A model generated the notes under the pieces. It was not told where the DNA came from. It ran no database searches and saw only the letters and a list, made by a program, of their open reading frames with translations. A DNA stretch of 64,000 nucleotides, taken from contig CM000151.3 of assembly GCA_000004695.1 (NCBI GenBank), positions 4,608,001-4,672,000 of the forward strand, read 5' to 3'. Position numbers and translations under genes: made by a program. This document shows positions 1 to 10,186 of this stretch, in pieces. Positions within the stretch are counted from its first letter, which is position 1. Every line of letters starts with the position of its first letter. The DNA is from Dictyostelium discoideum (lineage: Eukaryota).

Positions 1-3000
1 ATTAGTCCATCTGCAATACCTCTTTTTAAGAATCTTGCATACATTGAATGATCTCCAATTTGAATTTTTAAATAATCTTCGTTTGTATTATTTCCAAATT
101 GTTGAGATGAACAAATATCGTCACTGCTAGATGATTCAAATGTTGCTGACATTAATAATTCTAATTTACTTAATCGATTTCTAAATGGATATGAATTGAT
201 TGAAATTGTATATTTTGAAGTTGATGGGTTCATTTGTAAATTATTACCAGCGAATGATATATTTGTAGCCTTATCAAACCATTGAATAGTTACATTTGTT
301 TGTGATATTGTAATGTCATCTCTTGTAATATTAGTTATATACAATGATGTATTATTAGTTAAATCACTGTAAATCCATTTTTCAAAGTAATAGGTATTGA
401 TTACATTATATTCATAATCGAGTTCTCTTAAAGCTACTAATGATATTAAAGATCTAAATGTAATATCAAGATTCGATGAGGTGGTAGTTGTTCCGTTTGG
501 TGTTGAAATTTCGGTTGATGGATCGGTTGTATTAATTGATGGTTGTGGTACAATAATAACTTTGGATGTACAGTCAATACCAACCCATGGTGTGAAACAA
601 ACACAACCCGATGTACTAGTATCACAATAACCTTGATTTGAACCACCACATTCTGGTTTTCCTGGACATTGTGGTCTTTTAGTTGGTGTCGGTGTTGGTG
701 TTGGTGTTGGTGTTTCAGATGAAGATTCAGATGGTGTTTGAGATGGTGTTTGAGATGGTGTTTCAGTTGGTGTTTCAGTTGGTGTTTCGGTTGGTGTTTG
801 AGTTGGTGTTTCGGTTGGTGTTTGGGTTGGTGTTTCAGTTGGAGTTTGAGTTGGTGTTTCAGTTGGAGTTTGAGTTGGTGTTTCAGTTGGAGTTTGAGTT
901 GGTGTTTGAGTTGGTGTTTGAGTTGGTGTTTGAGTTGGTGTTTCAGTTGGTGTTTCAGTTGGTGTTGGTGTTTGAGTTGGGGTTGGTGGATCTGGAATAA
1001 ATAATAATACTTTTTGATATGGATAAATAAAATATTCATTTGAAGATATTGATTTATCATTTTCTAATATAATACTAAAGTTACTACCTTGATCCATTTC
1101 AGAGATACCGCCTAATAAAATAGCAGCACCCCCAACAGTTTTTTTAACTTGTAATGGTTTAGTAGTTGATTTATAATTGAATGTTGCACCAGTAACTGAT
1201 TTAAATCCTTTACCTGTTAACCATAAATCACCACCTAATGTAGAAATTCTATCAGAACCTGTAATAACTGGAACATCGATTGTATATGTTGTATTTATTA
1301 AATATGGGAAACCTAATTGTTTAAAATCATTAGAGCTATAACCACTATAATATCCACCATTATTTACTAAACCATAAACTGATAATAAAATTCCAAATGG
1401 GTAACCATATGCTACTGGTAATGAAATTGAACATTGATATGATTTTGAATTTGAATTGATTATTGTTTCAGATGTAATTTGACATTGAATTGTATTGAAA
1501 TCAGTTGAAGTTAAATAAATTACTGGGTAACTATTATTTTTAACACCAGATGCTAAATTTTCAACCTCTAAATTAAATGAAACAACTCTTTCACTTAAAC
1601 CTACATCAACTACAGTTTTATCACTAGAAAATTTTTTAATTACAACTGGTGTTGGATCACTTACTTCATTTGGACAAGTAACTGATATTTTATTGATTGA
1701 TGGATCATTAAAATAGTACATAAATGGATTATAAAGAGAGTTTAAAATAAATTTATAATCACTAAATAATGAAAATGTTGAATTATTATTTTCAGTATCA
1801 AATAGTAATACATCAGAAATAATATAGTCTTGAGAAATACAAGGAGTTGATAAATTAATACCAACTGTATATACTTGTTCAAATACATCAGTTGTTGGAT
1901 ATAATGTAAAATTATAATTTGAACCATCAATTGCACCTTTAACTACAATATAACCACTTTTAAAACCATTAATTGGATCACTAATTGTTAATTTCCAACC
2001 AATTTCAGTATTAGTTTGAATTGTAACTGGTGATGAAGATGGATACTTTTGAATTCTTTTAAATATTGGACCCATTAAATCAGCATCTTTATTAAACAAT
2101 TTGAATATTAAATTAGTAATTAATTTTTTCAATAAAAATAAATAAATAAAAATTTTAACTTACTTTCTGAAATTACATTAAATGAAGCATTACTACCTAA
2201 TGCACTATTCAATACCCATTGTTTTCTATTAAAAAAGAGGGCATAAGACATTGGACCTTGTCTCGAATTTCTTGGCAAATAAAATTCAACTTGAAACATT
2301 TTAATTGTATCATTCCATTGTGCTGGCCAAGCTTTATCTAGTAATCCTTGAGGATAGATTGGATCATCATTCAAATATTCTTTTATCCATTGTTGATGAT
2401 GAACCAATAGAGATATTGGTGAATTGATATCTAAATTTGACATATTAAAATATAAAATATTACCAGCAACAACATTTGTAACATCCATTGTTTTATAAAA
2501 AATTGAAGCATTTTGAACATTATAAAAATTGAAACCTTTAAAAGCAATTAAAAAAAAGTTAGTTTATATGTAATAAAAAACAATAGTTCATTATAATATT
2601 ATATAGCTTACTTTCATCATAATAAGGTGGTGAAATGTAAGAATTATCAACTGCATAAAAAAAATAATCTGAAGTTGAATATTGAAGTCCATTCGCTTTA
2701 AATGTTGAAGTAATTGTCAAAGTATCAACTACCATTTCATAAATATTTTCCCCTGCATATGATTCAAGTGAAAAAATTGTATCACCAACAATTAATTTAA
2801 AAATTGGATATTGGTAACTAATATCAAATCTTAATAAATAAAATCTACCAAATAAATGAATGAATTCATTTTTATTTAATTTTGAAAATAAATTATCTAA
2901 AAGAAATAGTTTAGTGTTTTATTATAATTAGTATTGTATTGGTAAAATAAGTTTTAAAAGTTTGTAGGTTAATTAATATTTACTGGTTGGTTTTGGTGAA

Positions 3001-4088
3001 ACTAATTTTTTAGAGTATCCTTTGGTTGTAGTAGGAAAGTCAGAAGTAACATATAGATCACCCATTATTGGATCATTGTTGGCAATTAAAAATGACATTG
3101 AATATGTAAATCCATTTAAATTATTACCACTTTTAAAACCAAATGGGAATCTATAAGATTTTAAAGTTTGATATCTAAAATAAATTGGTTCATATTTATA
3201 AGGCCCACTTGAAAATCCGGTATTTACAATATTATCAATTTGTTCAACATTACCAAAAGTGGGTATTGTTAATGTAGATGGTAAACCTTTATAAACAATT
3301 TTTAAATAATTAATAACTTGTAAATAATATTAATAATTAATATATAATTAATATAATAAAAATTACCTGTGATATTTAATTTTACTTGATCTCTTGTCGT
3401 TGCTGTTTGGCCACTTTGTGCTGAAAAAGTATGATCTCTGAGTCCAATATAAGTAATGTAATCATATAATGCTAAATAAGTTGTGAGTGGACCATTACTA
3501 TAAATCGCTCTGTACGTTAAAAAAAGGTTATTATATTTAACAAAGGGTGTTAATTTTGTTGAATTTGTTGTAAATGTAAAAAGTGGAGCATATAAATCAC
3601 CAATAACTTGAATGTTTTGTAAATTTTCTGGGTATCTAACTACCAAAGTTGAATCATAATCTATTATTTGAAATTATAAAAGTAATTATAAGTTTTAATA
3701 AAAAAAAAAATAAAAAAACTAATATTAAATAAATAAACCTTACTATTTTTTGAAAAATAATTATCTTGGTTTGGTAAAGTATTTTGAAATTGAATTTTCA
3801 TGGATACACTCCCTGGTGAATTTAAGTTTGAAACTGCACCAAAAACTCCATGATTACTCATATATATACTTCTGCAACTTGTGCCAGATGCAGATGGCAA
3901 ATCACTAGAGAAACGGTTCTCCACACCATTTAGTTTATATTGAAGTACTAGATAACCAAAAACAGTTGCGTCCATTGGAGAAATATCAATTGCATAATTT
4001 GATGAAGTAATTACTTTTTTTAAAAGAAGTAAAAAATGAAATTAATAATTATAAAATTTGAAAATAAATAAATAAATAAATAAATCAA

Positions 4089-4139
<51 letters not shown>

Positions 4140-8948: not shown

Positions 8949-9719
8949 GAATAGTAAAAATAATAAATAATAATAGTTACCTGTGATATTATATTGTACT
9001 GAATCCCTTAAAGTACAAGATGCTTGATCTTGAGCGCAAAAAGTATAGTTAGTTAATACGCCATCATATGGTCTGTAATCATATAAACCTAAATAGGTTG
9101 TTGATAAATTATTGCCACCAATTATTCTAAAAATTGCAAATTGATTTGTAAAAAAATTGACCCAGGGCGACATATATGTTGAATTTGATGTAAATATAAA
9201 AAGAGGAGCATATAAATCACCCAAAACTTGAATATTTTGAGTTAATACCAATCTTGAAACACTCACTTTATCATAATCTAAAAAAAATTAATATTTAAAA
9301 TCGAAATTATGTATACATAATGTTCAAAAGTTAGAGTTTAAAAATAAATGAAAAAATAATAAAGAATAAAAAAAAAAAAACATTATTAAATAATAATTAT
9401 CTTACTTGTAAGAGAGTAATAATTAGGTGAAGTTACAGTTATAGTATCTTCAATTTCGGCTGATATAAATCCAGGACCATTTAATAACATAGGAGATAGA
9501 AATAATGCTTTACTCTGATAAATTGCAGCCATTCCAGTTCCTTTGCTATTTGGAATTTTACTATATGACTTTCCTTCAACTCCATTTAAATAAAATTGGA
9601 GGAGTATAAAACCAAATGGTGAGGCATTCATTCCTGAGAAAACAACTCCATTATTTGCAGTGGTAAGTTCTTTTTAAAAAAAAAAAAAAAAATTAAAAAA
9701 ATAAAATTAAAATTAAATT

Positions 9720-9774
<55 letters not shown>

Positions 9775-10186
9775 TAATAATAATAATAATATTCATACTA
9801 TAGCATAAAAAGGGAATTGTAAGGGTGGAAGATTCGCTATTATCATTTTTAGCAGTTATTAATATACTATAAGATCCTTGTTGAATACTACTGGTACCTA
9901 TGGAGTAGGGTACAGAAATTGATGTATCATTTTTCTTAGCCATATAAGTAATAGCACTAACAGTATAACCTGGAGCTGTGACTGTTAATTTTGAATTTGG
10001 ATTTGCAGTGTCAGTAACTAGAACAGTAAAATATGTACTACACCTTTGATTTGTAGAACCACCAGTCATCCATATTGAATATTGAGTTTTATCAATTGTA
10101 ATATCATTAGTTATTAAAGATCCATTTAAAAAATTTTTCTCTAATAAAAAAATTAGTAAAAATACAAAGATTATTAATTTTTTCAT
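5288..10186 (-). CDS. Complete multi-exon gene for the same cell-surface glycoprotein family (~1500 aa): signal peptide, N-glycosylation-rich ectodomain, Thr/Pro repeat stalk, EGF-like module, single TM, short cytoplasmic tail. Copy 2 of the tandem pair
   Basis: Exon 1 is ORF 9713..10186 (MKKLIIFVFLLIFLL, signal peptide). Internal exon cores are ORFs 9386..9631, 8910..9266, 8453..8779 and 8054..8245. The last exon is 5288..7977, joined at acceptor ttaattatag|GT at 7978/7979. That exon carries the (TQTP/TETP)n stalk, CPGKPECGGSNQGYCDTSTSGCVCFTPWVGIDCTS, the TM segment IAGIVIGSVTFAAVVIFSLSF, the tail KRNQENKF... and a stop at 5288. Exact internal junctions are approximate. Confidence 0.65.
6300..6500 (-). 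repeat. Shorter (~8 unit) copy of the TQTP/TETP coding repeat in copy 2
   Basis: ggtgtttgagttgg... periodicity. ORFs 6082..6378 and 6319..6543 are wrong-frame readings. Confidence 0.75.

Follow-up and report, generated by a model that had tools for sequence, protein, structure and literature searches.

Two adjoining surface-glycoprotein genes of Dictyostelium discoideum combine diverged heads with a homogenised membrane-proximal cassette

How can two neighbouring genes be almost identical at one end and only loosely related at the other? This question is raised by a 64,000-nucleotide (nt) stretch of chromosome 2 of Dictyostelium discoideum AX4 (contig CM000151.3, positions 4,608,001 to 4,672,000), which we refer to as the window and to which all coordinates apply unless another locus is named. 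The first part of this AT-rich DNA, 1-10186, holds two minus-strand genes, g1 and g2, in head-to-tail arrangement. A preliminary description of the same DNA had taken them for tandem paralogues encoding cell-surface glycoproteins, an assignment that the full type-I layout of g2 bears out. In our analysis it is highly probable that g1 and g2 are old tandem duplicates whose 3' part was overwritten by recombination, so that in each gene a variable head is joined to a membrane-proximal cassette that both have in common. The gene models are as follows.

4543 to 1, minus strand: gene g1, truncated by the window start (manual splice model, open frame)
4543-4162, 4013-3744, 3660-3367, 3286-2984, 2896-2612, 2535-2164 and 2086-1, minus strand: exons of g1 (GT-AG, phase 1)
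5288..10186, minus strand: gene g2, complete (splice model; 1414 amino acids (aa), predicted mass 157 kDa)
10186-9799, 9669-9406, 9277-8981, 8805-8488, 8352-8065 and 7977-5288 (stop included), minus strand: exons of g2 (splice model)

All introns of both genes are GT-AG and in phase 1, and both frames read through intact. As had been recognised, g1 is cut by the window start: its frame is open to position 1, and the visible 1330 aa end with ...RGIADGL, within the supersandwich domain described below. The stop codon of g2 lies at 5288, and in L003, an independent strain assembly with 99.7% identity over 22 kb, a 1414-aa product is called at the g2 position. Five 5' introns occupy positions that are conserved between the two genes, and the internal exons (2612-4543 and 8065-10186) measure 264-318 nt, all multiples of three. 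Phase-1 introns together with these exon lengths suggest that each exon encodes one structural module; a one-exon-one-module layout of this kind recalls animal Ig-superfamily genes. The promoters of g1 and g2 are unrelated.

When positions 1-5300 were compared with 5301-11000 by blastn, the matches were colinear and far beyond chance. They substantiate the near-repeat of 1..2100 in 5636..7700 that had been reported before, and they reveal a gradient along the genes.

g1 1-852 with g2 5637-6491: 95.1% identity
g1 804-2072 with g2 6308-7588: 89.2% identity
g1 2164-2541 with g2 7603-7983: 75.4% identity
further 5' in both genes: short patches only, 76-90% identity

Positions 1-300 equal 5637-5936 at 100% identity. 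Only 3 mismatches were counted over the first 600 nt, where a few had been noted before, and 5 over 671 nt. To describe the divergence we aligned the codons of g1 and g2 and calculated synonymous divergence (dS) by the Nei-Gojobori method, which gave the following profile, dN being the nonsynonymous divergence.

exon 1: 36% aa identity, dS 0.97
exon 2: 38% aa identity, dS 1.18
exon 3: 54% aa identity, dS 0.63
exon 4: 67% aa identity, dS 0.50
exon 5: 42% aa identity, dS 0.65
start of exon 6: 60% aa identity, dS 0.69, dN/dS 0.39
alignment columns 649-1010: 84-85% aa identity, dS 0.14-0.17
after the stalk: 99% aa identity, dS 0.027, dN 0.004, dN/dS 0.14

Exons 1-5 have dN/dS values of 0.49-0.76, and the overall N-terminal aa identity is 47%, inside the range of 40-50% estimated earlier for these exons. 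Across the N-terminal half the pairwise dN/dS of ~0.4-0.76 is high, yet below 1. The profile falls into three tiers, namely the first ~650 codons, the region from there up to a Thr/Pro stalk, and the stalk onward, with third-position differences of 0.407, 0.143 and 0.014, respectively. Uniform divergence is rejected, as the maximum chi-square reached 476.7 for all sites and 161.8 for third positions, whereas none of 1000 permutations exceeded 19.0 and 24.8, respectively; the breakpoints were placed close to alignment columns 590-653 and 1078-1125. The preliminary description had spoken of a homogenised 3' half. Homogenisation by recombination is supported (dS ~0.6-1.2, then 0.15, then 0.03), but it comes in tiers and not as one block. 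Since the silent sites follow the steps, the segments differ in the age of their common ancestry, which points to ectopic recombination and not to constraint alone. A history of recombination is evident at the sequence level, with at least two nested ectopic events indicated by the following tracts.

989..2086, minus strand: tier-2 tract of g1, ~89-90% identical to g2 6492-7600; encodes DUF7035, DUF7034 and the fourth beta-sandwich
1..671, minus strand: tier-3 tract of g1, nearly equal to g2 5637-6307; codes for the EGF-like module and the greater part of the supersandwich domain
5637..6307, minus strand: tier-3 tract of g2, counterpart of g1 1-671
2087-2163, minus strand: intron 6, present in g1 only (77 nt, phase 1), at the border between beta-sandwich 1 and DUF7035; g2 lacks it (7588-7603)

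Identity changes from tier 1 to tier 2 in a fuzzy step near the intron-6 site of g1, ~90 nt to its 3' side. Splice sites had been described as conserved in the near-repeat; this holds for the positions of the five 5' introns, but g2 has no intron within 5636-7700 and the sixth intron is exclusive to g1. In a D. cf. discoideum paralogue (L002, ~10135-10222) the tblastn alignment shows a gap at the intron-6 site that is consistent with an intron, and therefore it is probably g2 that lost intron 6. cDNA-mediated conversion was considered as the cause of this absence and rejected for want of specific support, the identity step being fuzzy and displaced from the intron site.

Which parts of the protein correspond to the tiers? 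The g2 product starts with a signal-like N-terminus, followed by a large ectodomain, a Thr/Pro stalk, an EGF-like module, one transmembrane (TM) segment and a 23-aa tail. In an hmmscan of the last exon all four Pfam families of g2 exceeded their curated cut-offs.

7184..7600, minus strand: g2 DUF7035, aa 645-783 (Pfam E=4.6e-40, 137.3 bits, cut-off 27)
6794..7153, minus strand: g2 DUF7034, aa 794-913 (Pfam E=1.8e-30, 106 bits, cut-off 27)
6308..6491, minus strand: g2 Thr/Pro stalk repeat, 12-nt unit, 15.1 copies (Tandem Repeats Finder, TRF)
672..988, minus strand: g1 Thr/Pro stalk repeat, 12-nt unit, 26.4 copies (TRF), encoding a 105-aa TP-rich stalk
6194..6304, minus strand: g2 EGF-like module DUF7949, aa 1077-1113, CPGKPECGGSNQGYC...CVCFTPWVGIDC (Pfam E=1.2e-13, 51.4 bits)
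5501..6148, minus strand: g2 ComC supersandwich domain PF22933 (ComC_SSD), aa 1129-1344 (E=6.5e-15, 55.8 bits, cut-off 24)
5360-5422, minus strand: g2 TM helix (from hydropathy)
5291-5359, minus strand: g2 cytoplasmic tail, 23 aa (from coordinates)

The g2 product carries 30 N-glycosylation sequons and a single hydrophobic segment (aa 1371-1391). A signal peptide and 24 sequons are found in the visible part of g1, which is cut by the window edge before the TM segment and tail. At the protein level the stalk unit reads T-E/Q-T-P, and the TP-rich stalk of g2 comprises 64 aa (6317-6508). The stalk had previously been counted in 24-nt units, ~14 in one copy and ~8 in the other; the copy number does differ (~13 and 7.6 such units), but the true period is 12 nt. 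The six-Cys motif of the EGF-like module is almost invariant in an alignment of 70 sequences. The N-terminal 656-665 aa of g1 and g2 gave no Pfam match (hmmscan, E<=1), and a PDB sequence search returned chance-level matches only, to the TM and EGF regions. AlphaFold modelling of the last exon of g2 reached a predicted local distance difference test score (pLDDT) of 31 from the single sequence, and became usable with the 70-sequence alignment: aa 522-1011 were predicted as four beta-sandwich domains at a pLDDT of 89.7, and the top ranks of a Foldseek search were occupied by tandem-Ig ectodomains (LILRB3/PirB, ICAM-5, PTP-delta). The modelled g2 ectodomain therefore has the build of an Ig-like adhesion receptor, with a fold that appears IPT-like, while its sequence places it outside the Tgr family.

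Their domain content assigns g1 and g2 to a dictyostelid-specific family of type-I membrane glycoproteins with DUF7035, DUF7034, the EGF-like DUF7949 and a ComC-type supersandwich. DUF7035 followed by DUF7034 is also found in P0001 and P0002 and at loci L001, L002 and L009-L014. An exhaustive HMMER search yielded 1385 cluster representatives at E<=1e-3, 386 of them at E<=1e-30 and most of them 1300-1430 aa long; family size is taken from this search, as word-indexed searches with g2, its first 1005 aa and a four-sequence profile gave only three distant relatives. Where relatives are named, they are called 'hypothetical' or 'EGF-like domain-containing protein'. Within Dictyostelium they occur in D. 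discoideum, D. citrinum, D. firmibasis, D. purpureum and D. dimigraforme, and beyond it in Tieghemostelium lacteum, Heterostelium album, Polysphondylium violaceum and Synstelium. The identity of g1 and g2 with other full-length members among the retrieved sequences is only 30-44%. The cassette of g2 (aa 1073-1366) is 99% identical to that of g1 versus at most 54% to other representatives (median 40%); the corresponding values are at most 46% (median 29%) for the middle region and at most 29% (median 26%, four detectable matches only) for the head. No match to the first ~100 residues of g1 or g2 was found among the relatives. The D. cf. discoideum gene P0006, located at L002, had been considered as an orthologue, but it is only 46-54% identical and non-syntenic at the DNA level and was therefore classed as a paralogue.

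Several very long family matches turned out to be two or three adjoining genes merged by annotation. In T. lacteum, H. album, D. firmibasis and P. violaceum (L009-L014), the fused 'proteins' of 2450-3930 aa found in public annotation are gene-model errors of this kind, and near-identical cassettes probably eased the fusions. We compared the units of six such arrays from four species (one each of D. firmibasis, H. album and P. violaceum, and three of T. lacteum). In all six, adjoining units are most alike at their 3' end.

D. firmibasis array: 98.75% over 2.7 kb, versus 84-90% further 5'
T. lacteum array L009: 98.3% over 917 nt, elsewhere at most 72%
T. lacteum array L012: 90-92% over ~1 kb, three units
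T. lacteum array L014: 79-86% over 1.3-2.2 kb, four units
H. album array: 92% over ~990 nt, unit 3 with units 1 and 2
P. violaceum array: 81% over 735 nt

The L009 tract begins 3 nt ahead of the first cysteine of the EGF module and stops within the TM segment; that of H. album begins in the T/P stalk and likewise stops within the TM segment. In a joint protein alignment, pairs within an array share 27-81% of residues in the head, 43-98% in the middle and 79-100% in the cassette. Between arrays (96 pairs) the maxima are 21%, 36% and 48%, respectively, and these also hold for the 12 pairs inside T. lacteum. Cassettes thus cluster by array, a hallmark of recurrent concerted evolution. Counting g1/g2, the same EGF-supersandwich cassette is the homogenised unit in seven arrays from five dictyostelid species.

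From these data a course of events can be proposed. An old tandem duplication gave rise to g1 and g2, and ectopic recombination then overwrote the 3' part at least twice, by gene conversion and possibly with unequal crossing-over. The older event extended from the vicinity of the intron-6 site as far as the 3' end, and the recent one took in the stalk, the EGF module and the supersandwich cassette. In order, the g2 protein, and that of g1 as far as it is visible, consists of a signal peptide, a fast-evolving head with one module per exon, four Ig-like beta-sandwiches, a Thr/Pro stalk that varies in length and can be O-glycosylated, the EGF-like module and the supersandwich domain, after which come a single TM helix and a short tail. 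A further trace lies between the two genes.

4958..5064, minus strand: relic of the 3' end of a family member, between the g2 stop and the g1 start, 78-84% identical to g2 5319-5430

This relic comprises a degenerate TM segment with Asp residues, a shortened tail, a double stop and ~60 nt of 3' untranslated region (3'UTR), ~230 nt downstream of the g2 stop. Its presence is evidence for past unequal or illegitimate recombination at the locus.

Could the gradient have arisen without any recombination, from one old duplication followed by strong purifying selection on the C-terminal part and relaxed or positive selection on the N-terminal part? The cassette is indeed the best conserved region family-wide, ahead of middle and head by the medians given above, and dN/dS after the stalk is as low as 0.14. 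Selection on the protein does not explain, however, why synonymous and third-position differences drop 30-fold along the gene. Nor does it account for a cassette that is shared at 99% by g1 and g2 and at no more than 54% with any other family member, or for the 917 nt at 98.3% in T. lacteum that adjoin unalignable DNA, so that we consider this explanation extremely improbable. The probability that a single gene was duplicated in silico is negligible. The 300 identical nt at the window edge would fit such an assembly artefact, which had been named as a risk at the outset, but the copies differ elsewhere by 5% to >50%, both open reading frames (ORFs) are intact, and stalk length, intron content and promoters all differ; furthermore, the 5' part of g2 is reproduced in the independent assembly.

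A different kind of alternative concerns the mechanism, as chimeras could also have formed via unequal crossing-over or a partial, 3'-only segmental duplication instead of non-reciprocal conversion, with changes in array copy number. The relic of TM segment, tail and 3'UTR just downstream of g2 fits this scheme, as do the unequal stalk repeat numbers of g1 and g2 and the 2-4 units plus partial units seen in the arrays of other species. On the other hand, two nested tiers (dS 0.15 and 0.03) are explained more simply by repeated short conversion tracts, tract borders recur at the stalk/EGF module in different species, and crossing-over alone would change the copy number each time. We regard it as a possible but rather unlikely substitute for conversion, although the mechanisms are not exclusive and can coexist. 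The remaining rival is one of identity. The Tgr/Lag IPT-TIG family had been put forward as a candidate, in which case g1 and g2 would be allorecognition genes of the TgrB1/TgrC1 type with heads diversified by balancing selection. At E<=1, hmmscan finds DUF7035, DUF7034, DUF7949 and ComC_SSD, and neither the last exon nor the N-terminal part (665/656 aa) of g1 or g2 gives a match to IPT/TIG (PF01833). Moreover, tgrB1 and tgrC1 are a divergently transcribed pair, whereas g1 and g2 lie head-to-tail, and dN/dS stays below 1 throughout. Membership in the Tgr family is thus very unlikely.

Several points nevertheless weigh against old duplicates with a recombined 3' part and a variable head. The cassette is the slowest-evolving part across the family (median 40% versus 26% for the head), so the amino-acid gradient is partly constraint. 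Values of dS near 1 are saturated in a genome of ~25% GC; they are semi-quantitative and mean 'old' only. The 3' end of g1 is outside the window, which puts the extent and direction of the recent tract out of view. In the 99.7% identical assembly L003, g2 differs by intron homopolymers only and the coding sequence of exons 1-5 is unchanged. Finally, the N-terminal 520 aa have neither a Pfam match nor a structure model.

What might these proteins do? Their architecture is consistent with a surface adhesion or recognition receptor in which the head would confer specificity and the cassette a common anchoring or signalling function. A lead to a named protein is gp138, with which studies by Fang et al. 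(1993, Dev Biol 156:201) and Aiba et al. (1997, J Biochem 121:238) reportedly dealt in the context of sexual cell fusion. Entries in the reference lists of two papers (PMC2119896, PMC2443395) refer to gp138 (GP138A/GP138B) as a D. discoideum cell-surface glycoprotein with 'two genes encoding' it and a connection to sexual cell fusion. It is fairly probable that g1 and g2 are the gp138 genes, which makes them candidates and an unverified lead; the name gp138 was absent from all matches in the protein database searches with g2. More speculatively, the cassette could be a 'constant region' that selection keeps identical within each array across the Dictyostelia, with the Ig-like heads as free-running 'variable regions', a notion that we consider rather unlikely. 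If it were true, array neighbours would have a cis partner in common or assemble with each other by means of the cassette, and if g1 and g2 were also the gp138 genes, the constant/variable architecture would apply to a gamete-recognition protein.

The remainder of the window holds other genes. Two single-exon ORFs match D. discoideum AX4 proteins of chromosome 2 exactly, and neighbouring ORFs encode FNIP repeats as well as family-A DNA polymerase, protein kinase and Rrn7/TAF1B domains; no tRNA genes were found in the window.

10827-15059, minus strand: low-complexity-rich ORF, 1398 aa in L003, no Pfam match at E<=0.001
15794-17223: intergenic patch in which nearly all substitutions between the window and L003 concentrate, with many A/T flips in runs
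17298-19385: ORF, exact match to DDB_G0274423 (SH3 protein)
~23600-40100: tandem FNIP-repeat genes (ORFs 23680-25533, 29236-30645, 35986-37173 and 37992-39392; segments 74-93% identical)
61717-62397: ORF, exact match to DDB_G0274959

The composition of the patch at 15794-17223 points to a difference in assembly or sequencing and not to polymorphism. From the descending numbering of its neighbours, we would guess that the ORF 10827-15059 is DDB_G0274425, a gene reportedly listed in a paper on ErkB phosphorylation targets (PMC6397043).

Both g1 and g2 belong to the annotated genes of a model organism, and tandem paralogues are well known to undergo partial gene conversion, so that the locus by itself is ordinary. 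The added value lies in the comparison across species, i.e. the same cassette homogenised in seven arrays, with heads that rank among the parts of the family that evolve fastest. This leads to a testable hypothesis for a large and functionally almost uncharacterised family of surface proteins, with specificity in the head and a shared function in the cassette, and it corrects an assignment to the Tgr allorecognition family that is tempting but mistaken.

Among known systems, the ComC-type family is closest in build, as it has the domain order, the length of ~1300-1430 aa, the single TM segment and the short tail in common with g2; some of these relatives carry DUF7743 in the N-terminal region, where the first 520 aa of g1 and g2 have no Pfam match. 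The D. discoideum gene comC, after which the supersandwich domain is named, is listed as developmentally essential, with EGF domains, signal and TM segment, and IPT/TIG as the cell-adhesion family (PMC4931340). Like TgrB1/TgrC1 (LagB/LagC), g1 and g2 encode large type-I surface proteins with tandem Ig-like domains from a dictyostelid multigene family, and the modelled g2 ectodomain may resemble IPT domains in its fold; the set of Pfam families and the gene orientation differ. With gp138 they would share the origin of a surface glycoprotein from two closely related genes, given their near-identical portion, signal peptides and sequons, but the g2 precursor, predicted at 157 kDa before glycosylation, exceeds 138 kDa unless it is processed. 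The evolutionary pattern has counterparts outside the dictyostelids. Partial concerted evolution occurs in tandem receptor clusters such as the KIR/LILR and MHC genes, in which homogenised segments stand beside diverged ligand-binding segments and tract borders fall at domain boundaries, as they do here. Unlike in those clusters, the homogenised unit of g1 and g2 is the membrane-proximal EGF-supersandwich cassette, which recurs independently in arrays of at least five dictyostelid species.

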